Source: Escherichia phage EO1. From it: a stretch of DNA of 64,000 nt. This document shows positions 11,060 through 55,860 of this stretch, one piece after another. The DNA lies in the sequence record OQ223305.1. One strand, written 5' to 3'. The notes under the pieces were generated by a model. The model saw nothing but the letters and a program-made list of their open reading frames with translations. It did not search any database and had not been told where the DNA came from. Position 1 is the first letter of the stretch, and each line of letters starts with the position of its first letter. Both the position numbers and the translations under genes were made by a program.

Positions 11060-11130
11060 ACATTCTGTATATTACCATTCTAAGCTATCGTTCCCTTCTT
11101 ATCATTCCCTAAAATAATTTTCACAAAGTT

Positions 11131-11160
11131 GTTTACAACGAGCTCAAACTGTGGTATTAT
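11131..11160 (+). promoter_or_regulatory. early promoter (GTTTAC ... GTGGTATTAT)
   Basis: GTTTAC 11131-11136 and TATTAT 11155-11160 with 18-bp spacer; follows the nrdH terminator. Confidence 0.6.
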
Positions 11161-22970: not shown

Positions 22971-25667
22971 ATGAAAGAATTTTATATCTCTATTGAAACA
23001 GTCGGAAATAACATTGTTGAACGTTATATTGATGAAAACGGAAAGGAACGTACTCGTGAAGTAGAATATCTTCCAACTATGTTTAGGCATTGTAAGGAAG
23101 AGTCAAAATACAAAGACATCTATGGTAAAAATTGTGCTCCTCAAAAATTTCCATCAATGAAAGATGCTCGAGATTGGATGAAACGAATGGAAGACATCGG
23201 TCTCGAAGCTCTCGGTATGAACGATTTTAAACTCGCTTATATCAGTGATACATATGGTTCAGAAATTGTTTATGACCGAAAATTTGTTCGTGTAGCTAAC
23301 TGTGACATTGAGGTTACTGGTGATAAATTTCCTGACCCAATGAAAGCTGAATATGAAATTGATGCTATCACTCATTACGATTCAATTGACGATCGTTTTT
23401 ATGTTTTCGACCTTTTGAATTCAATGTATGGTTCAGTATCAAAATGGGATGCAAAGTTAGCTGCTAAGCTTGACTGTGAAGGTGGTGATGAAGTTCCTCA
23501 AGAAATTCTTGACCGAGTAATTTATATGCCATTCGATAATGAGCGTGATATGCTCATGGAATATATTAATCTTTGGGAACAGAAACGACCTGCTATTTTT
23601 ACCGGTTGGAATATTGAGGGATTTGACGTTCCGTATATCATGAATCGCGTTAAAATGGTTCTCGGTGAACGTAGTATGAAACGCTTCTCTCCAATCGGTC
23701 GAGTAAAATCTAAATTAATTCAAAATATGTACGGTAGCAAAGAAATTTATTCTATTGATGGCGTATCTATTCTTGATTATTTAGATTTGTACAAGAAATT
23801 CGCTTTTACTAATTTGCCGTCATTCTCTTTGGAATCAGTTGCTCAACATGAAACCAAAAAAGGTAAATTACCATACGACGGTCCTATTAATAAACTTCGT
23901 GAGACTAATCATCAACGATACATTAGTTATAACATCATTGACGTAGAATCAGTTCAAGCAATTGATAAAATTCGCGGGTTTATCGATCTAGTTTTAAGTA
24001 TGTCTTATTACGCTAAAATGCCTTTTTCCGGTGTAATGAGTCCTATTAAAACTTGGGATGCTATTATTTTTAACTCATTGAAAGGTGAACATAAGGTTAT
24101 TCCTCAACAAGGTTCGCACGTTAAACAGAGTTTTCCGGGTGCATTTGTATTTGAACCTAAACCAATTGCTCGTCGATATATTATGAGTTTTGACTTGACG
24201 TCTCTGTATCCGAGCATTATTCGTCAGGTTAACATTAGTCCTGAAACTATTCGTGGTCAGTTTAAAGTTCATCCAATTCATGAATATATCGCAGGAACAG
24301 CTCCTAAACCGAGTGATGAATATTCTTGTTCTCCGAATGGATGGATGTATGATAAGCATCAAGAAGGTATCATTCCAAAGGAAATCGCTAAAGTATTTTT
24401 CCAGCGTAAAGACTGGAAAAAGAAAATGTTCGCTGAAGAAATGAATGCCGAAGCTATTAAAAAGATTATTATGAAAGGCGCAGGGTCTTGTTCAACTAAA
24501 CCTGAAGTTGAACGATATGTTAAGTTCAGTGATGATTTCTTAAATGAACTATCGAATTATACTGAATCTGTTCTCAATAGTTTGATTGAAGAATGTGAAA
24601 AAGCAGCTACACTTGCTAATACAAATCAGCTGAACCGTAAAATTCTTATTAACAGTCTTTATGGTGCTCTTGGTAATATTCATTTCCGTTACTATGATTT
24701 GCGAAATGCTACTGCTATCACAATTTTCGGCCAAGTTGGTATTCAGTGGATTGCTCGTAAAATTAATGAATACCTGAATAAGGTGTGTGGAACTAATGGC
24801 GAAGATTTCATCGCAGCAGGTGATACTGATTCGGTATATGTTTGTGTAGATAAAGTTATTGAAAAAGTAGGTCTTGACCGCTTTAAAGAACAAAATGATT
24901 TAGTTGAATTCATGAATCAGTTCGGTAAGAAAAAGATGGAACCTATGATTGATGTTGCATATCGTGAGTTATGTGATTATATGAATAACCGCGAGCATCT
25001 GATGCATATGGACCGTGAAGCTATTTCTTGTCCTCCGCTCGGTTCAAAGGGTGTTGGTGGATTTTGGAAAGCGAAAAAACGTTATGCTCTGAACGTTTAT
25101 GATATGGAAGATAAGCGATTTGCTGAACCGCATCTAAAAATCATGGGTATGGAAACTCAGCAAAGTTCAACACCAAAAGCAGTACAAGAAGCTCTTGAAG
25201 AAAGTATTCGTCGTATTCTTCAGGAAGGTGAAGAGTCTGTCCAAGAATATTACAAGAACTTCGAGAAAGAATATCGTCAACTTGACTATAAAGTTATTGC
25301 TGAAGTAAAAACTGCGAACGATATAGCGAAATATGATGATAAAGGTTGGCCAGGGTTTAAATGCCCGTTCCATATTCGCGGTGTGCTAACTTATCGTCGA
25401 GCTGTTAGCGGTCTGGGTGTAGCTCCAATTTTGGATGGAAATAAAGTAATGGTTCTTCCATTACGTGAAGGAAATCCATTTGGCGACAAGTGCATTGCTT
25501 GGCCGTCGGGTACGGAACTTCCAAAAGAAATTCGTTCTGATGTACTGTCTTGGATTGACTACTCAACTTTGTTCCAAAAATCGTTTGTTAAACCGCTTGC
25601 GGGCATGTGTGAATCGGCTGGTATGGACTATGAAGAAAAAGCTTCGTTAGACTTCCTGTTTGGCTGA
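22971..25667 (+). CDS. 43: DNA polymerase gp43 (family B), 898 aa
   Basis: 898 aa; exonuclease and polymerase motifs (DIE, YGDTDS); uninterrupted. Confidence 0.95.
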   Translation: MKEFYISIETVGNNIVERYIDENGKERTREVEYLPTMFRHCKEESKYKDIYGKNCAPQKFPSMKDARDWMKRMEDIGLEALGMNDFKLAYISDTYGSEIVYDRKFVRVANCDIEVTGDKFPDPMKAEYEIDAITHYDSIDDRFYVFDLLNSMYGSVSKWDAKLAAKLDCEGGDEVPQEILDRVIYMPFDNERDMLMEYINLWEQKRPAIFTGWNIEGFDVPYIMNRVKMVLGERSMKRFSPIGRVKSKLIQNMYGSKEIYSIDGVSILDYLDLYKKFAFTNLPSFSLESVAQHETKKGKLPYDGPINKLRETNHQRYISYNIIDVESVQAIDKIRGFIDLVLSMSYYAKMPFSGVMSPIKTWDAIIFNSLKGEHKVIPQQGSHVKQSFPGAFVFEPKPIARRYIMSFDLTSLYPSIIRQVNISPETIRGQFKVHPIHEYIAGTAPKPSDEYSCSPNGWMYDKHQEGIIPKEIAKVFFQRKDWKKKMFAEEMNAEAIKKIIMKGAGSCSTKPEVERYVKFSDDFLNELSNYTESVLNSLIEECEKAATLANTNQLNRKILINSLYGALGNIHFRYYDLRNATAITIFGQVGIQWIARKINEYLNKVCGTNGEDFIAAGDTDSVYVCVDKVIEKVGLDRFKEQNDLVEFMNQFGKKKMEPMIDVAYRELCDYMNNREHLMHMDREAISCPPLGSKGVGGFWKAKKRYALNVYDMEDKRFAEPHLKIMGMETQQSSTPKAVQEALEESIRRILQEGEESVQEYYKNFEKEYRQLDYKVIAEVKTANDIAKYDDKGWPGFKCPFHIRGVLTYRRAVSGLGVAPILDGNKVMVLPLREGNPFGDKCIAWPSGTELPKEIRSDVLSWIDYSTLFQKSFVKPLAGMCESAGMDYEEKASLDFLFG

Positions 25668-25680
25668 TAGAATAAATCTA

Positions 25681-25701
25681 GGGACCTCCAGGTCCCTTTT
25701 T
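25681..25701 (+). terminator. rho-independent terminator after gene 43
   Basis: GGGACCTCCAGGTCCC 25681-25696 followed by TTTTT. Confidence 0.8.
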
Positions 25702-25783
25702 CATACAAGTAATATAAATCTATACTTATGAAAAACAGATGATTCTGGACATTTAGAATTCCCTAAAAAATTTTCACAAAACT

Positions 25784-25815
25784 GTTTACAAGAATGTTCT
25801 TCCATGGTACTATAC
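25784..25815 (+). promoter_or_regulatory. early promoter cassette with conserved 32-bp core
   Basis: GTTTAC 25784-25789; core GGTACTATACAACTATCAACTACTGATACGGA at 25806-25837. Confidence 0.65.
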
Positions 25816-25850
25816 AACTATCAACTACTGATACGGATTTGGATAATAAA

Positions 25851-26087
25851 ATGAAAATTGTTATGGGTTGCTTAGCAGTTTGTTTAGTTGCATTAGCAGC
25901 AGTTCCATTTGTTAGTGTTGAAAATGATACTCAACCTGTGATTGAATCTAGCACTGTTATTCACACTAATGGTAAAATATCAGTTAAAATTGATGATAAT
26001 CTTCATGTGAATACAAATGGATCTTTAGGTGTGCAAATGGGTAATACCTGCATAAGCACTACTGGAGTAATTACTACTTGCATTTGA
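25851..26087 (+). CDS. hypothetical secreted small protein (78 aa)
   Basis: ATG 25851 after promoter core and GGAT; N-terminal signal-like segment MKIVMGCLAVCLVALAAVPFVSV. Confidence 0.45.
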   Translation: MKIVMGCLAVCLVALAAVPFVSVENDTQPVIESSTVIHTNGKISVKIDDNLHVNTNGSLGVQMGNTCISTTGVITTCI

Positions 26088-26097
26088 GGAAATTATT

Positions 26098-26478
26098 ATG
26101 AAAATCGCTATTTTGGTTATTGCATTAGGTCTTACTGGTTGTGTGGCTCAAGGACCGGTAGTAAATCAGTCTGATGCAGGAAAAATTGTAAACTGTTCAA
26201 GCAAGTTTTATAATCCTAATGTCAAGTGTTATAAAGAAGCTCCAAAGCAAACAGTCGAACAAATGCAGGCGAATTTTGACGAAGCTATTCGTCCAGATGA
26301 ATCTGCTCAAGCATATCGTAATTCGGATGTAATTACACGCGAAGAAAAAATTGAAAACTACTGCGCCGAGCTTTGGGCAAATTGGGCTAATAATTACCAA
26401 TGGCGTACCGGTAAAAATGCTCCGATGGAGTATGTAGTGAATTCTTATAATTCATGCGTAAAAAATTTGACTAAGTGA
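26098..26478 (+). CDS. hypothetical lipoprotein (126 aa)
   Basis: Signal peptide with lipobox-like LTGC (MKIAILVIALGLTGCVAQG); adjacent to imm. Confidence 0.5.
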   Translation: MKIAILVIALGLTGCVAQGPVVNQSDAGKIVNCSSKFYNPNVKCYKEAPKQTVEQMQANFDEAIRPDESAQAYRNSDVITREEKIENYCAELWANWANNYQWRTGKNAPMEYVVNSYNSCVKNLTK

Positions 26479-26485
26479 GGAAAAC

Positions 26486-26737
26486 ATGGAAACTTTAGTA
26501 GCAGGTTCAATTTTTATGGTTTTAGTTTCAGGTGTGTTGGCTATTATTATATACATGCTTCCATGGTTTATCGCCTTGATGCGTGGGTCAAAATCGACAG
26601 TAGGAATCTTTTTCACATCTTTACTGTTTAACTGGTCAATTATTGGTTGGTTTATTACATTTATTTGGTCAATTGCGGGTGAAACTAAAAAGTCTGCACA
26701 ACCAAATCAGGTAATTATCATCAGAGAGAAGGAATGA
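26486..26737 (+). CDS. imm: superinfection immunity protein Imm (83 aa membrane protein)
   Basis: 83 aa, two hydrophobic helices, located between 43 and 42 as in T4. Confidence 0.7.
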   Translation: METLVAGSIFMVLVSGVLAIIIYMLPWFIALMRGSKSTVGIFFTSLLFNWSIIGWFITFIWSIAGETKKSAQPNQVIIIREKE

Positions 26738-26883
26738 AAAGCAAAATTATAGCAGTGTTGCTTTTAATCTTGATGATTATAATAAGTATATACTATAGTG
26801 TAACGGTTCCTCTTATGATTCCAACTATTATTTTAGGTTGGGGTTTATTACTGTTACAAGTTAAATATGAATGTATCAATTGA
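26734..26883 (+). CDS. hypothetical small membrane protein (49 aa)
   Basis: ATG overlaps the imm stop (ATGA); hydrophobic. Confidence 0.35.
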   Translation: MKSKIIAVLLLILMIIISIYYSVTVPLMIPTIILGWGLLLLQVKYECIN

Positions 26884-26890
26884 GGTTTAA

Positions 26891-27631
26891 ATGATTAGTG
26901 ACTCTATGACAGTTGAAGAAATCCGTCTTCATTTGGGGCTTGCATTAAAAGAAAAAGATTTCGTAGTTGATAAAACCGGTGTTAAAACTATTGAAATTAT
27001 TGGCGCATCATTTGTAGCAGATGAACCGTTTATTTTTGGCGCTCTTAATGATGAATACATTCAGCGTGAACTTGAATGGTATAAATCTAAGAGCTTGTTT
27101 GTTAAAGATATTCCAGGTGAAACACCAAAGATTTGGCAGCAGGTAGCATCTTCTAAAGGCGAAATTAACTCGAATTATGGTTGGGCTATTTGGTCAGAAG
27201 ATAACTATGCCCAGTATGATATGTGTTTAGCTGAACTTGGTCAAAATCCTGATTCTCGGCGTGGTATCATGATTTATACTCGTCCATCCATGCAATTTGA
27301 CTACAATAAAGATGGTATGTCAGATTTCATGTGTACTAATACAGTACAGTACCTGATTCGTGATAAGAAAGTCAATGCGGTTGTTAGCATGAGAAGCAAT
27401 GATTGCTGGGCAGGCTATCGTAATGATTATGCTTGGCAAAAATACGTACTAGATAAATTAGTATCTGATTTGAATGCAGGCGACCCATCGCGGCAATATA
27501 AAGCAGGTTCTATTATATGGAACGTTGGAAGTCTTCATGTGTACGAAAATCAGTTTTATTTAGTTGACCATTGGTGGAATACTGGCGAAACTCATATTGT
27601 GAAAAAAGACTATAAAGGTGAGTGGAAATGA
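26891..27631 (+). CDS. 42: dCMP hydroxymethylase gp42 (246 aa)
   Basis: 246 aa; thymidylate-synthase-like sequence matching T4 gp42 as recalled (MISDSMTVEEIRLHLGLALKEKDF…). Confidence 0.9.
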   Translation: MISDSMTVEEIRLHLGLALKEKDFVVDKTGVKTIEIIGASFVADEPFIFGALNDEYIQRELEWYKSKSLFVKDIPGETPKIWQQVASSKGEINSNYGWAIWSEDNYAQYDMCLAELGQNPDSRRGIMIYTRPSMQFDYNKDGMSDFMCTNTVQYLIRDKKVNAVVSMRSNDCWAGYRNDYAWQKYVLDKLVSDLNAGDPSRQYKAGSIIWNVGSLHVYENQFYLVDHWWNTGETHIVKKDYKGEWK

Positions 27632-28470
27632 TTCAATTCGTAATTCCAAGTTATCAGCGTGTCGGGGCAGTTTCTGCCCTTGATATGTTTCCGACTAATT
27701 ATGAACCCCATATTGTAGTGCGTGAACATGAAGAAAAAGCTTATTATGATGCCTATGGGTCTAGAGCTAAAATTATAACTATTCCTGACGATGTAAATGG
27801 AATTGCTGGTACTCGTAAAGCAATTACTGATATGTATGCAGGTCAACGAATCTGGATGATTGACGATGATACTACTATTCGTATGAGTTCAATGCGAAAA
27901 AGAGATGACCGTCGTTGTGTAGATAAAGTCAATCAATTAACCCGTGAACAGTTCTATGAATTGATTCAATACGTCGAAGATGCCATGGATTGCGGGTATT
28001 ATCATGGCCATGCTCGTCTACCTATTTTTAAAATTACTTCATCTTGGGGTAATTATCGTGAAAATTCATATGGATTCACGAATACATGGTATGACCTCGG
28101 AAAACTTACGACAGAACAAATTGGGTATGGAAAAATTGATTTATGCGAAGATATGTATGCATTTCTCAATTTAATTAATCAAGGTTATCCGCATTTGGCC
28201 TTGTTCAAATATCTGGTTGTATCTGGAAAAGCACAAGCTCCTGGCGGGTGTAGTTCAATTCGTAGTAATTCTAAACATAATAGAGCGCTTGAGCAAATCA
28301 ATAGAGAGTTTCCAGAGCAAGCTCGTTGGAAAACGTCGAATATTGAAAAACGAAAATCGTTGGGTGAAGAAGACGAGCCATTAAAGGTTCTTCGTATGTG
28401 TGTTTCGCGCAAAGAAAAATCAGAAGCATTTCATAAGTTTAATGCTATTCATCCGATAGCAGTTGATTAA
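27628..28470 (+). CDS. glycosyltransferase with DxD (GT-A-like) motif at the beta-gt locus; possible beta-alpha-glucosyl transferase
   Basis: ATG 27628 overlaps the gp42 stop; motif IWMIDDDTTI; sequence does not resemble T4 beta-gt as recalled. Confidence 0.55.
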   Translation: MIQFVIPSYQRVGAVSALDMFPTNYEPHIVVREHEEKAYYDAYGSRAKIITIPDDVNGIAGTRKAITDMYAGQRIWMIDDDTTIRMSSMRKRDDRRCVDKVNQLTREQFYELIQYVEDAMDCGYYHGHARLPIFKITSSWGNYRENSYGFTNTWYDLGKLTTEQIGYGKIDLCEDMYAFLNLINQGYPHLALFKYLVVSGKAQAPGGCSSIRSNSKHNRALEQINREFPEQARWKTSNIEKRKSLGEEDEPLKVLRMCVSRKEKSEAFHKFNAIHPIAVD

Positions 28471-32061: not shown

Positions 32062-32355
32062 ATGAAAAAATTTATCTTTGCTGCAATTTTTGCTTTATCT
32101 TCTTGTGCTGCTCAGCCTGCTATGGCAGGTTATGATAAAGATTTGTGTGAGTGGTCTATGACTGCAGACCAGACTGAGGTTGAAACTCAAATTGAAGCAG
32201 ATATTATGAATATCGTTGAGCGTGATCGTCCTGAAATGAAAGCTGAGGTGCAAAAACAACTTAAGTCTGGTGGTGTAATGCAGTATAATTATGTTCTGTA
32301 TTGCGATAAAAACTTTAATAATAAAAATATCATCGCTGAAGTGGTAGGTGAATAA
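32062..32355 (+). CDS. sp: Spackle (periplasmic superinfection-exclusion protein), 97 aa
   Basis: 97 aa with N-terminal signal peptide MKKFIFAAIFALSSCAAQPAMA; size and position match T4 sp (61.3). Confidence 0.6.
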   Translation: MKKFIFAAIFALSSCAAQPAMAGYDKDLCEWSMTADQTEVETQIEADIMNIVERDRPEMKAEVQKQLKSGGVMQYNYVLYCDKNFNNKNIIAEVVGE

Positions 32356-44390: not shown

Positions 44391-44424
44391 AGTTTAAATT
44401 TTTTTTTTTCATAAAACTATATAC

Positions 44425-44467
44425 ATCAGTAGTTGATTATGGTACTATATCAATATCAACTACTGAT
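44425..44467 (+). promoter_or_regulatory. promoter-like stem-loop element: 13-bp perfect inverted repeat bracketing a -10 region
   Basis: ATCAGTAGTTGAT (44425-44437) and ATCAACTACTGAT (44455-44467) flank TATGGTACTATAT; variant of the 32-bp core; no GTTTAC -35. Confidence 0.5.
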
Positions 44468-44491
44468 ACAGAAAATAACTTGGAGAATAAA

Positions 44492-44761
44492 ATGGAAAAT
44501 TTAATTATCATCGAGCAATCTTTCAATGATTATGGTATGGCTTACGGTTATCGTGCGATAATGGAAGATTCTCGTGGATGTGTTATCGATATTGCTGAAT
44601 GTAAAGATTTACTGCAGCTTTTGAAGATTGTTCGCAAAAATTGGGATTGTGAAAACATTAAAGCTCGTGTTGTAACGGAAGAAGAAACTGTTTTTCATGA
44701 TGTAAAATTCGCCAAAGGTGCTGCTACTCTTCTGAAACGCATTGCTCCACTGTTCAATTAA
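44492..44761 (+). CDS. hypothetical protein (89 aa)
   Basis: ATG 44492 after TTGGAGAATAAA downstream of a promoter stem-loop. Confidence 0.4.
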   Translation: MENLIIIEQSFNDYGMAYGYRAIMEDSRGCVIDIAECKDLLQLLKIVRKNWDCENIKARVVTEEETVFHDVKFAKGAATLLKRIAPLFN

Positions 44762-45975: not shown

Positions 45976-46236
45976 ATGAAATATATTAATCGTTCTATCG
46001 CAGCATTAGTATTAGCAGTGTCTTTAGCAGGATGTACTGATGCTGATAATGCAACCAAAATTTTGTCATCAAGCGGTTTTACTAATATTGAAATCACTGG
46101 ATACAATTGGTTCGGTTGCTCTGAAAATGATTTCCAACATACTGGATTTCGTGCTATTGGACCTACTGGGCAGAAAGTAGAAGGAACAGTATGTTCTGGG
46201 TTGTTCTTTAAGGATTCAACTATTCGTTTTAAATAA
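45976..46236 (+). CDS. hypothetical lipoprotein (86 aa)
   Basis: Signal peptide with lipobox LAGC (MKYINRSIAALVLAVSLAGCTD); followed by a terminator. Confidence 0.45.
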   Translation: MKYINRSIAALVLAVSLAGCTDADNATKILSSSGFTNIEITGYNWFGCSENDFQHTGFRAIGPTGQKVEGTVCSGLFFKDSTIRFK

Positions 46237-46254: not shown

Positions 46255-46305
46255 GCTTTATGATTACCGGAGTATAATATTCCCGAAACCAAACGAGGAT
46301 AAGTG

Positions 46306-48123
46306 ATGATTAAGAATGAAATTAAAATTCTGAGCGATATTGAACATATCAAAAAGCGTAGTGGCATGTACATTGGCTCTTCTGCTAATGAAATGCATGA
46401 GCGCTTTCTGTTTGGTAAATGGGAAAGTGTTCAGTATGTACCTGGTCTTGTTAAGCTTATTGATGAAATTATCGATAACTCAGTCGATGAAGGTATTCGT
46501 ACTAAGTTTAAATTCGCGAATAAAATTAATGTTACCATTAAAAATAATCAGGTAACAGTTGAAGATAACGGTCGTGGTATTCCACAAGCGATGGTTAAAA
46601 CACCTACCGGTGAAGAAATTCCTGGTCCAGTTGCTGCTTGGACTATTCCAAAAGCGGGTGGTAACTTTGGTGATGATAAAGAACGTGTCACCGGTGGTAT
46701 GAATGGTGTTGGTTCTAGTTTAACTAACATTTTTTCTGTGATGTTTGTCGGTGAAACTGGCGATGGTCAAAATAATATTGTAGTTCGTTGTTCAAATGGT
46801 ATGGAAAATAAATCCTGGGAAACTATTCCTGGAAAATGGAAAGGAACTCGTGTTACTTTCATTCCTGATTTTATGTCATTTGAAACTAATGAGCTGTCCC
46901 AGGTTTATCTTGACATTACACTGGATCGTCTCCAGACACTTGCTGTCGTTTATCCTGATATTCAATTTACCTTTAATGGTAAAAAGGTTCAGGGCAATTT
47001 TAAGAAATATGCACGACAGTATGATGAACATGCTATCGTTCAAGAACAAGAAAATTGTTCTATTGCGGTTGGTCGTTCACCGGATGGATTTCGTCAATTA
47101 ACTTACGTGAATAACATTCACACTAAGAATGGTGGTCATCACATTGATTGTGTTATGGATGATATTTGTGAAGACCTTATTCCACAAATCAAACGTAAAT
47201 TCAAAATTGATGTAACTAAAGCACGCGTTAAAGAATGTTTGACTATCGTTATGTTTGTTCGTGATATGAAAAACATGCGATTTGATTCTCAAACTAAAGA
47301 GCGTTTGACTTCTCCATTTGGCGAAATTCGTAGTCATATTCAACTTGATGCTAAAAAGATTTCACGCGCTATTCTAAATAATGAAGCAATTTTAATGCCG
47401 ATTATTGAAGCTGCGTTGGCTCGTAAATTGGCGGCAGAAAAAGCAGCAGAAACTAAAGCAGCTAAAAAGGCTTCTAAAGCTAAGGTTCATAAACATATCA
47501 AAGCGAATCTCTGTGGTAAAGATGCTGACACTACTCTTTTCTTGACTGAGGGTGATTCTGCTATCGGATATCTTATTGATGTTCGTGATAAAGAACTTCA
47601 TGGTGGTTATCCATTGCGTGGTAAAGTTCTCAACAGTTGGGGTATGTCATATGCTGATATGCTTAAAAACAAAGAACTATTTGATATTTGCGCAATCACT
47701 GGATTAGTTCTTGGTGAAAAAGCTGAAAACTTGAATTATCATAATATTGCTATTATGACCGATGCTGACCATGATGGTTTAGGAAGCATTTATCCTTCTC
47801 TGCTCGGATTTTTTAGTAATTGGCCAGAATTGTTTGAGCAAGGACGAATTCGCTTTGTCAAAACTCCTGTAATCATCGCTCAGGTCGGTAAAAAACAAGA
47901 ATGGTTTTATACAGTCGCTGAATATGAGAGTGCTAAAGATGCTCTACCTAAACATAGCATCCGTTATATTAAAGGACTTGGCTCTTTGGAAAAATCTGAA
48001 TATCGTGAGATGATTCAAAATCCAGTATATGATGTTGTTAAACTTCCTGAGAACTGGAAAGAGCTTTTTGAAATGCTCATGGGAGATAATGCTGACCTTC
48101 GTAAAGAATGGATGAGCCAGTAG
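46306..48123 (+). CDS. 39: DNA topoisomerase II large (ATPase) subunit gp39, uninterrupted 605-aa form
   Basis: GHKL ATPase motifs (IDNSVDEG, GRGIP) and TOPRIM region (LTEGDSA) in one ORF; 605 aa, i.e. not split into 39 + 60. Confidence 0.9.
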   Translation: MIKNEIKILSDIEHIKKRSGMYIGSSANEMHERFLFGKWESVQYVPGLVKLIDEIIDNSVDEGIRTKFKFANKINVTIKNNQVTVEDNGRGIPQAMVKTPTGEEIPGPVAAWTIPKAGGNFGDDKERVTGGMNGVGSSLTNIFSVMFVGETGDGQNNIVVRCSNGMENKSWETIPGKWKGTRVTFIPDFMSFETNELSQVYLDITLDRLQTLAVVYPDIQFTFNGKKVQGNFKKYARQYDEHAIVQEQENCSIAVGRSPDGFRQLTYVNNIHTKNGGHHIDCVMDDICEDLIPQIKRKFKIDVTKARVKECLTIVMFVRDMKNMRFDSQTKERLTSPFGEIRSHIQLDAKKISRAILNNEAILMPIIEAALARKLAAEKAAETKAAKKASKAKVHKHIKANLCGKDADTTLFLTEGDSAIGYLIDVRDKELHGGYPLRGKVLNSWGMSYADMLKNKELFDICAITGLVLGEKAENLNYHNIAIMTDADHDGLGSIYPSLLGFFSNWPELFEQGRIRFVKTPVIIAQVGKKQEWFYTVAEYESAKDALPKHSIRYIKGLGSLEKSEYREMIQNPVYDVVKLPENWKELFEMLMGDNADLRKEWMSQ

Positions 48124-51824: not shown

Positions 51825-52382
51825 ATGCAGAAAACGAATCCGGGGCTACAGAGACTATTTCAGATTCCGACATTTACCCTATCGAACAGTGACTTGACTA
51901 GTGAAATGAAAGTCAAAATTGCTGATACAGCAAGATACTCTTTAAAACAAAACCCGAACCAGGATAAGGCAGAAGTTATCGAAAGATGCCGTATCGCTGT
52001 GTACGCAGAGTTTTTTGTAGCAGATTGGTTAAGCGGGTATGTTAATAAAGGTCAAGAAGATGTCGATGATCCGTACACATATGCATGGGATGTATTGGCG
52101 CATCCAAAATACTGTGGGCTTCGTGTAGAAGTCAAAACACATCAAACTGACTCACGATGGATTTCGGTAACAACCGGATGCAGCGGAGAGTATCCATACG
52201 GTTCTGGAATAAATCTAGGGCCCATTCTGAATCACCAAGTCGCTGACTGTATAATTATATTCAACACTAAAGAAATTCACCCAGGTGTCATCCAGTACAC
52301 TCCGAAATTCATCGGTGATAGAGAAGACCTTCGTAAGGTTGTAAGAAAAAGCAACTACAACGGATGGTATCTTTCCATTTAA
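51825..52382 (+). CDS. denB: endonuclease IV DenB-like (185 aa)
   Basis: 185 aa and position next to rIIB match T4 denB; assignment by size and synteny. Confidence 0.55.
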   Translation: MQKTNPGLQRLFQIPTFTLSNSDLTSEMKVKIADTARYSLKQNPNQDKAEVIERCRIAVYAEFFVADWLSGYVNKGQEDVDDPYTYAWDVLAHPKYCGLRVEVKTHQTDSRWISVTTGCSGEYPYGSGINLGPILNHQVADCIIIFNTKEIHPGVIQYTPKFIGDREDLRKVVRKSNYNGWYLSI

Positions 52383-52397
52383 AAATTTCACAAAACA

Positions 52398-52451
52398 GTT
52401 TACATACCACAAGGACCGTGGTACTATACAACTATCAACTACTGATACAGA
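52398..52451 (+). promoter_or_regulatory. chimeric early promoter cassette
   Basis: GTTTAC 52398-52403, CCACAAGGACCGTGG 52407-52421 (second cassette type) fused to the 32-bp core at 52420-52451. Confidence 0.6.
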
Positions 52452-52570
52452 TTTGGAGAATAAAATGAAAATCGCTGAGATTGAACTATGAGTTCATTAT
52501 GGTGGTGTTTTGTTTGGTTAATTAGTATTCCAGTAATTTGTTTAACATTTACTTTTGTGATGAGGTTATT

Positions 52571-52669
52571 ATGAAAATTTTGAATTCTGTACTTATTGCT
52601 TGTGCGTGGTGGGTTGCGCAAGTTTCAGCAGTAGTAGTTGGTATTCACATTTATTACGAATATTTTTAA
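52571..52669 (+). CDS. hypothetical hydrophobic peptide (32 aa)
   Basis: ATG after GAGG; single hydrophobic helix. Confidence 0.25.
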   Translation: MKILNSVLIACAWWVAQVSAVVVGIHIYYEYF

Positions 52670-52672
52670 AAA

Positions 52673-52737
52673 AGTTGTTTACAAGACTGTTCCTCTGTGG
52701 TATTATTACCCTATCAACTACGGAGGAACAGAAAATG
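52673..52737 (+). repeat. 65-bp promoter cassette, copy 2
   Basis: AGTTGTTTACAAGACTGTTCCTCTGTGGTA[TTATTACC]CTATCAACTACGGAGGAACAGAAAATG, versus CTATACAA in copy 1. Confidence 0.8.
52677..52731 (+). promoter_or_regulatory. early promoter cassette, duplicate of the 61-125 element
   Basis: GTTTAC 52677-52682; inverted repeat CTGTTCCTC (52687-52695) / GAGGAACAG (52723-52731); -10 block GGTATTATTACC. Confidence 0.65.
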
Positions 52738-55780: not shown

Positions 55781-55806
55781 ATTTCAAAAATTTTTTTCAC
55801 AAAAAG

Positions 55807-55860
55807 GTTTACAACCAAAGCATACTGTGGTACTATACAACTATCAACTACTGATACAGA
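55807..55860 (+). promoter_or_regulatory. early promoter of motA with conserved 32-bp core
   Basis: GTTTAC 55807-55812; core GGTACTATACAACTATCAACTACTGATACAGA at 55829-55860. Confidence 0.65.

Follow-up and report, generated by a model that had tools for sequence, protein, structure and literature searches.

Known exclusion systems and the locus studied

In the textbook case of superinfection exclusion, that of phage T4, two components have been named, Imm and Spackle. Spackle inhibits the gp5 lysozyme (PMC7677548), and a 2026 preprint that does not mention Imm.1 shows that the target of Imm is gp29, the tape-measure protein, which it binds at a helical-bundle domain (bioRxiv 10.64898/2026.03.06.709160). 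Here we analyse two small open reading frames (ORFs), ORF78 and ORF126, located immediately upstream of imm in a stretch of 64,000 nucleotides (nt) from Escherichia phage EO1 (OQ223305.1). The whole stretch is referred to as the window, and its positions 25600-27000 as the locus that was compared with other phages. This locus is 100% identical to that of Escherichia phage PE37 (Tequatrovirus) and 95-99% identical to that of several hundred other T-even phages. An initial annotation had placed a protein of 78 amino acids (aa) and a 126-aa lipoprotein here, and both ORFs were found at exactly those positions (Table 1). ORF126 is the orthologue of T4 Imm.1, a protein already named in T4, to which the literature searched assigns no function. 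A periplasmic accessory role of Imm.1 in exclusion is plausible. New here are the conserved periplasmic location predicted for Imm.1, with a facultative anchor, the persistence of imm.1 and imm as a pair, a similar lipoprotein beside imm in four further genera, and the recognition of ORF78 as an optional cassette.

Spackle (gp61.3), from the same phage, resembles the predicted Imm.1 in being a small helical protein of the periplasm, made early, exported by Sec and disulfide-bonded. The signal peptides are also alike, and in RB69 the spackle gene directly follows the imm.1-imm pair. Spackle differs in having an established target, gp5 lysozyme (PMC7677548). Homology between Imm.1 and Spackle was rejected, since the alignment was confined to the signal peptides.

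Streptococcus phage TP-J34 encodes the lipoprotein Ltp, whose extracytoplasmic domain is helical and which binds the incoming tape-measure protein and thereby blocks DNA injection (PMC3952083). Unlike Imm.1, Ltp is encoded by a prophage of a Gram-positive host and has helix-turn-helix repeat domains, and it shows no detectable similarity to Imm.1. T5 Llp and T1/phi80 Cor are small phage outer-membrane lipoproteins that face the periplasm, as is predicted for Imm.1, carry an intramolecular disulfide and serve to protect the infected cell (PMC9586334). They act on FhuA and their genes are linked to receptor-binding-protein or tail genes, whereas the linkage of imm.1 is to imm, and Imm.1 stays the same where receptor specificity differs. 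The two-component spanins (Rz/Rz1; T4 PseT.3/PseT.2) are likewise encoded by adjacent genes for an outer-membrane lipoprotein and an inner-membrane protein. However, spanin genes are late lysis genes and the i-spanin has a periplasmic coiled coil, whereas imm.1 and imm are early and Imm is essentially without a periplasmic domain.

ORF126 is the orthologue of T4 Imm.1

ORF126 is 98.4% identical to T4 Imm.1 and, as in T4, is located between gene 43 and imm. It matches Pfam family PF17578 (DUF5481) over residues 22-124 with 236.7 bits (gathering cut-off 27; E = 3.2e-71), the family of T4 Imm.1 itself (gene imm.1, formerly ORF 42.2; UniProt P18057). This shows that ORF126 is the T4 Imm.1 orthologue, an identity that the initial annotation had not recognised. 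The lipobox design is common to both proteins, with LAGC in T4 and LTGC in ORF126, and nothing substantive differs in Imm.1 between T4 and the window; the upstream ORF78 is missing in T4. The RefSeq label of T4 imm.1, 'iduronate sulfatase', found no support in the present domain and annotation comparison, and the name 'immunity protein' given by many pipelines derives from proximity alone. A literature search found no paper on the function of Imm.1 or DUF5481, and an NCBIfam scan added no information.

The DUF5481 family is tiny. An exhaustive HMMER scan of 1.84 billion proteins yielded six clusters, each with its representative, and the divergent lineages were only reached in this way, as a word-indexed protein search gave near-identical sequences only. 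A tblastn search found imm.1 in 656 phage records, about 500 of them from Tequatrovirus with at least 95% identity and about 155 from Mosigvirus with about 32%, with none intermediate. Within Tequatrovirus the gene is under strong purifying selection (omega 0.03-0.15), and across about 500 Tequatroviruses, T2 and T4 among them, the protein is 97-100% identical.

Between lineages, identity is 32-44% for Imm.1 and 84-89% for gp43 (in the three lineages whose contigs include gp43), and the Spackle proteins of PE37 and RB69 are 67% identical. In three of five lineages Imm shows higher conservation than Imm.1 (RB69, 65%; L009, 79.5%; L008, 83%), and in the other two it is about as divergent (L005, Imm 45% versus Imm.1 32%; L006, Imm 37% versus Imm.1 39%). 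Judged from these comparisons, the Imm.1 family consists of discrete, internally conserved types, which in those three lineages have diverged more than the adjacent Imm.

Export signal and predicted location of Imm.1

Export signals were judged by patterns (PROSITE PS51257, G+LPP and DOLOP), by hydropathy and by '-3,-1' sites, without a trained predictor. The lipobox criterion was [LVI][ASTVI][GAS]C with the cysteine at position 15-35, together with a positive charge in the n-region and a hydrophobic h-region. The N-terminus of ORF126, MKIAILVIALGLTGC/V and continuing VAQ, has a lysine at position 2, the h-region IAILVIALG and the lipobox LTGC with Cys15 (codon 26140-26142), and its signal peptide would comprise aa 1-14. 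All three patterns were passed, in agreement with the earlier call of a lipoprotein with this lipobox. The residue that follows the lipidated cysteine (+2) sets Lol-dependent sorting to the outer membrane. In ORF126 this residue is valine, and across the DUF5481 family it is never aspartate, so outer-membrane sorting is predicted for Imm.1.

The lipobox cysteine is kept in four of the six DUF5481 lineages (T4, RB69, P0019 and P0021) despite 32-39% identity, with the lipoboxes LAGC, LTGC, LVGC and TTGC. The remaining two (P0018 and P0022) carry a signal-peptidase-I-type signal instead, LAGFSAHA/SD and LAFSSYAHA/EG. Since all six lineages keep an export signal and two of them do so without the lipobox cysteine, the periplasmic location appears to be conserved and the lipid anchor facultative.

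The predicted mature ORF126 has 112 aa and four cysteines (33, 44, 89 and 120). Mature DUF5481 proteins carry two or four, and the C89/C120 pair is invariant, as are the motifs YNP..K.Y and YR.S. In an AlphaFold2 model of Imm.1, confidence is confined to a helical hairpin at the C-terminus, 81-125 (predicted local distance difference test, pLDDT, 87-94), which contains the invariant cysteine pair.

Only three real genes in the window passed both PS51257 and G+LPP: ORF126, spackle, and the ORF of a further lipoprotein that the initial annotation had correctly pointed out. Spackle passes with LSSC at Cys15, and the RB69 protein retains a cysteine there (AVSC). Spackle has been described as a soluble periplasmic protein of 75 aa, cleaved after residue 22 (PMC7677548). 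Its lipobox match may be either a false positive of the patterns or a sign that Spackle is lipidated. The third gene, with the lipobox LAGC at Cys20, is the orthologue of T4 gp39.1 (comC-alpha-2) and lies directly upstream of gene 39. It was found in 1065 phage records, including T4-like phages of Klebsiella, Serratia and Enterobacter, a far broader distribution than that of Imm.1.

Imm.1 is small, is produced early and is predicted to be an outer-membrane lipoprotein; T5 Llp fits this description exactly and acts from the periplasmic side (PMC9586334). Imm.1, ORF78 or both might accordingly mask an outer-membrane receptor from its periplasmic face, in the manner of Llp or of T1/phi80 Cor, and so block both superinfecting adsorption and the loss of progeny on debris. 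We consider this highly improbable. T2 uses the receptors OmpF/FadL and T4 uses OmpC/lipopolysaccharide, and their Imm.1 proteins are nevertheless near-identical, as given above. T-even-infected cells keep adsorbing superinfecting phage, and lysis inhibition depends on such adsorption. Furthermore, two DUF5481 lineages lack the lipid anchor, Pfam, PHROG and fold searches gave no sequence or fold likeness to Llp or Cor, and imm.1 is linked to imm and not to receptor-binding genes, whereas llp adjoins pb5 (PMC9586334). The initial annotation had referred to a class enriched for superinfection exclusion and receptor masking. The exclusion part of this claim is favoured by the linkage of imm.1 to imm in every lineage found, whereas receptor masking is disfavoured by the T2/T4 identity, by that same linkage and by the loss of the anchor.

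Linkage of imm.1 and imm

Each of the six DUF5481 lineages has the gene directly upstream of an Imm_superinfect gene, with a gap of 7-61 nt. Three genomic contexts were found: 43 / imm.1 / imm / 42 in the T4-type and three metagenomic lineages, frd.3-like / imm.1 / imm / ORF49 in one metagenomic lineage, and 61.4 / imm.1 / imm / sp / 61.2 in RB69. In Mosigvirus (RB69) imm.1 and imm have thus been relocated as a pair beside spackle, and ORF49 remained at the gene 43 locus. That the linkage survives rearrangements argues, by association, for an exclusion-related role of Imm.1.

Four more genera of the Tevenvirinae, represented by JS98, RZ, STP4-a and Mineola, have no recognisable DUF5481 protein, and in each of them a lipoprotein of 147-176 aa (130-153 aa mature) is encoded adjoining imm. 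The gene lies upstream of imm in STP4-a and Mineola, and downstream, beyond an ORF49-like gene, in JS98 and RZ. These lipoproteins are mutually homologous. They share with DUF5481 the pattern C..QG.VVPASEVGK.R at and right after the lipid cysteine, as well as an invariant tyrosine, a helical middle and a C-terminal cysteine pair ending in [FY]N[KQ]C. They are probably either distant homologues of DUF5481 or positional analogues. With these included, each of the enterobacterial T-even genera examined has a gene for an early, predicted periplasmic lipoprotein as a neighbour of imm, and where imm has moved, this gene has moved with it.

A possible role of Imm.1 in exclusion

Imm.1 shares early expression and a predicted envelope location with the T-even exclusion proteins. 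Its gene follows an early promoter and leader, export signals were recognised as described above, and in time-resolved omics data T4 Imm.1 is classed as 'early-RNA_early-Protein' (PMC9697503, supplements 4 and 6). We propose that Imm.1 would be exported by Sec, lipidated at Cys15 and Lol-sorted to the inner leaflet of the outer membrane, where its disulfide-stapled helical C-terminal domain would be displayed in the periplasm. The conserved linkage suggests that it may work with Imm or in the same process. It could meet the periplasm-ejected components of a superinfecting phage, be it gp29 or the gp27/gp5 hub, prior to or during the block that Imm imposes on the tape-measure protein at the inner membrane. 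Such a role would parallel that of Spackle against the gp5 lysozyme, and the precedent for the mechanism that we favour is Ltp with its tape-measure target. In this scheme Imm.1 would be an accessory, and the basic activity of Imm would be independent of it.

We tentatively favour Imm.1 as a periplasmic layer of T-even superinfection exclusion alongside Spackle and Imm, and rate the likelihood of this somewhat short of even. If Imm.1 contributes to exclusion, it would add a third layer to the model of how T-even phages seal the infected cell, and could also account for the specificity with which related therapeutic phages exclude one another. A more far-reaching version appears unlikely to us. 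It holds that Imm.1-type lipoproteins are a third exclusion component, tethered to the outer membrane, which captures the incoming tape-measure protein or hub and hands the block to Imm; that their divergence sets who excludes whom (T4 versus RB69); and that the design recurs beside imm across the Tevenvirinae.

A number of observations speak against a role in exclusion. Plasmid-borne Imm alone excludes T4 (bioRxiv 10.64898/2026.03.06.709160). Imm-family proteins occur in many phages and bacteria without any Imm.1, and imm itself was found in about 1000 phage records. Knock-down of T4 imm.1 by CRISPRi-ART was scored 'Not Fit', with a value of -0.77 (PMC11879866, supplement), in an assay that reads plaque fitness and not exclusion; by this score imm.1 is dispensable for laboratory plaque fitness of T4. 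Because T-even gene order is generally conserved, part of the imm.1-imm linkage is inherited and not independently maintained. The lipobox match is suggestive of lipidation but no proof of it, because the soluble periplasmic Spackle also matches. No informative match came from fold and sequence searches with Imm.1 among solved and predicted structures. Nor was a homology to DUF5481 upheld for the lipoproteins of the four additional genera; the first matches came from the signal peptides, and the mature sequences gave insignificant values (hmmsearch E about 2; hhalign 76% over 28 columns; no Pfam match). Finally, the literature search found no published test tying Imm.1 to exclusion.

The sufficiency of Imm alone, the dispensability of imm.1 in T4 and the wide occurrence of Imm-family proteins without Imm.1 are all in favour of an envelope role apart from exclusion. 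Imm.1 might modulate the time of lysis or its inhibition, act against a factor in the periplasm or outer membrane of the host, or make the envelope of the infected cell more stable, with its co-transcription with imm being incidental. The plasticity of the gene 43 locus, which collects unrelated cassettes (PMC2839356; see also the T2 slot below), points the same way. We regard such a role as a genuine possibility, albeit a rather unlikely one. It does not sit easily with the move to the sp locus in Mosigvirus, in which imm.1 and imm stayed paired and ORF49 was left behind, nor with the presence of a lipoprotein accompanying imm in ten lineages and three gene orders. The arrangement for translational coupling, with the Shine-Dalgarno (SD) sequence inside the upstream stop codon, also argues against an incidental association. 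Even if Imm.1 has no part in exclusion, it is an early envelope protein made in abundance by the best-studied of phages. Imm.1 as a periplasmic layer of exclusion is a modest and directly testable lead, not a surprise.

ORF78 is an optional gene in a variable slot

The N-terminus of ORF78 reads MKIVMGCLAVCLVALAAVPFVSVEND, in which Lys2 is followed by a 21-residue hydrophobic stretch (mean Kyte-Doolittle hydropathy 2.3-2.7 over 19-mers). A '-3,-1' site, a candidate for cleavage by signal peptidase I, is present at A14-L15-A16/A17 with acidic residues beyond. The hydrophobic segment covers aa 1-23, and the h-region can be taken as I3-V13 (or I3-V23), in a hydrophobic stretch of 21-28 residues. 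The signal-like N-terminus that had been noted for this protein was thereby recovered, and may represent either a cleaved signal peptide or an uncleaved signal anchor. All three lipobox patterns (PS51257, G+LPP and DOLOP) failed for ORF78. A 97-aa version of ORF78 is used by some annotators. The 78-aa call is correct, because the ATG of the longer reading (25794) falls within the promoter, ahead of the -10 box.

The C-terminal 55 aa or so are beta-rich and contain Cys67 and Cys77. The AlphaFold2 model is poor (mean pLDDT 52.7), with a helix at 3-16, a linker and six short strands. No Pfam family matched ORF78, and sequence searches with ORF78 and Imm.1 against solved structures gave nothing convincing. 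ORF78 was found in 325 phage records, in Tequatrovirus-type sequences only. We infer that it is a separate optional cassette gene, the product of which is predicted to be secreted or N-terminally anchored with the beta-rich C-terminus facing the periplasm.

A weak PDB profile match to the baseplate central spike (E = 3.1) and a visible 8-residue periodicity had raised the idea that ORF78 mimics the C-terminal beta-helix of gp5. Pairwise BLAST against T4 gp5 gave 19.6 bits, and gp5 ranked 12th in a background of 427 ORFs (E = 4.4). The idea was rejected as a chance likeness between beta-rich sequences.

At a synonymous divergence (dS) of 0.24-0.38 the frame and length of ORF78 are intact and omega is 0.27-0.44, and the final 20 residues hardly vary between alleles. 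ORF78 is a real gene and subject to purifying selection. Some alleles have 7-aa duplications in the hydrophobic segment, and one gains a LAAC lipobox, with the UniRef name 'Lipoprotein'.

ORF78 was not found in T4, T2 or any outgroup lineage examined. In T4 the same leader runs straight into imm.1, and the 247-bp difference is bounded by ATGAAAAT, which is common to both start regions. In T2 (MH751506.1, 637-888) and RB51 the corresponding slot holds an unrelated 83-aa ORF (RB51ORF048) without a signal-like N-terminus. The slot between promoter and imm.1 therefore has at least three states, being empty (T4) or occupied by ORF78 or by RB51ORF048 (T2 and RB51). Since the slot is empty or holds an unrelated protein elsewhere, the position of ORF78 by imm is weak evidence on its function. 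In Shigella phage CT01 (OK018184.1) positions 409-1246 are scrambled and consist of a leader, the 32 first codons of imm.1, an internal ORF78 fragment, a second leader and an intact imm.1. Such an arrangement suggests that repeated leader cassettes have recombined with each other.

The early promoter and leader, through the start codon, form a cassette that is repeated in the window, with at least six further copies at 78-95% identity (near 64-109, 11104-11138, 44406-44501, 52381-52472, 52659-52721 and 55794-55857). It resembles the promoter/stem-loop (PeSL) cassettes of T4-type phages, which shuffle ORFans and for which the gene 43 region has been named as plastic (PMC2839356). The variability of the slot fits recombination between such repeated early promoter/stem-loop cassettes (PMC2839356), and the repeated copies are probable substrates of recombination that inserts or deletes small early ORFs.

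These observations lead to the further alternative that ORF78, and perhaps imm.1 too, are neutral or selfish ORFan cassettes spread between repeated promoter/leader elements, without a selected function. Such an origin would agree with the presence of ORF78 in only about 325 of about 500 Tequatroviruses, its absence from T4, T2 and all outgroups, the indel endpoints in ATGAAAAT of both start regions, the scrambled copy with a duplicated leader in CT01, and the known shuffling of ORFans by PeSL-type cassettes (PMC2839356). The lack of a selected function is nonetheless very unlikely, as the conserved frame and length of ORF78, its nearly invariant C-terminal 20 residues and the low omega of imm.1 (0.03-0.15) all stand against it.

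Transcription unit and neighbouring genes

The features of the locus are listed in Table 1. The strong terminator that closes the gene 43 transcript has a stem of 7 bp with five G-C pairs, and annotations of phage G8 and of the T4 record M37159 likewise mark this element as a terminator. The early promoter consists of an A/T-rich upstream region, GTTTACA (-35), a spacer of 17 and tGGTACTATA (-10), and its transcribed leader reads CAACTATCAACTACTGATACgGA-TTGGAtAATAAAATG. The distance from the imm.1 stop to the imm start is 7 nt, and the SD sequence of imm, GAGG, overlaps the imm.1 stop codon: TGAGGaaaacATG. The sequence TGAGG, with the SD in or against the preceding stop, is found at the junctions from ORF78 to imm.1, from imm.1 to imm and from ORF49 to gene 42, and the junction from imm to ORF49 is a stop/start overlap, ATGA. 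As each downstream SD sits in or against the preceding stop, the genes form a tightly coupled immediate-early operon. The terminator, early promoter and leader, ORF78, imm.1, imm, ORF49 and gene 42 make up one immediate-early unit.

Table 1. Positions of the features discussed, in window coordinates
Feature	Position	Strand	Remarks
Gene 43, DNA polymerase	22971-25667		
Intrinsic terminator hairpin	25680-25697	+	AGGGACC-TCCA-GGTCCCT then TTTTT; closes gene 43 transcript
T4-type early promoter and conserved transcribed leader	25758-25859	+	promoter scan match 25785-25813
ORF78, small protein, predicted exported or membrane-anchored	25851-26087	+	78 aa; phrog_4189
ORF126, imm.1 orthologue	26098-26478	+	126 aa; Pfam DUF5481/PF17578
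imm, superinfection immunity inner-membrane protein	26486-26737	+	Pfam Imm_superinfect 7.7e-16; phrog_1039
ORF49, two hydrophobic segments	26734-26883	+	phrog_3610 5.7e-26; hydropathy
Gene 42, dCMP hydroxymethylase	26891-27631		
beta-glucosyl-HMC-alpha-glucosyltransferase	27622-28470		
spackle	32062-32355		passes PS51257 and G+LPP
gp39.1 orthologue	45976-46236		passes PS51257 and G+LPP
Gene 39, topoisomerase II large subunit	46303-48123		606 aa

Positions 25851-26883 contain the sole run of four consecutive proteins with hydrophobic segments (14 positive among 119 crude plus-strand gene calls), where about 0.02 such runs are expected by chance. The initial annotation had combined the two small proteins with Imm and Spackle into a group of envelope-targeted early proteins. 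The export signals, the early promoter shared with imm and the early RNA and protein of T4 Imm.1 are consistent with such a group, whereas the position of ORF78 adds little in this respect.

ORF49 encodes 49 aa with the motif MIPTxIxGW...QxKYxC[FI]N and was found in 761 phage records. It is also present in T4 (AF158101, 26230-26376), yet without annotation in the T4 reference records. The gene for the topoisomerase II large subunit of T4 is split into genes 39 and 60. In the window, gene 39 is a single ORF of 606 aa.

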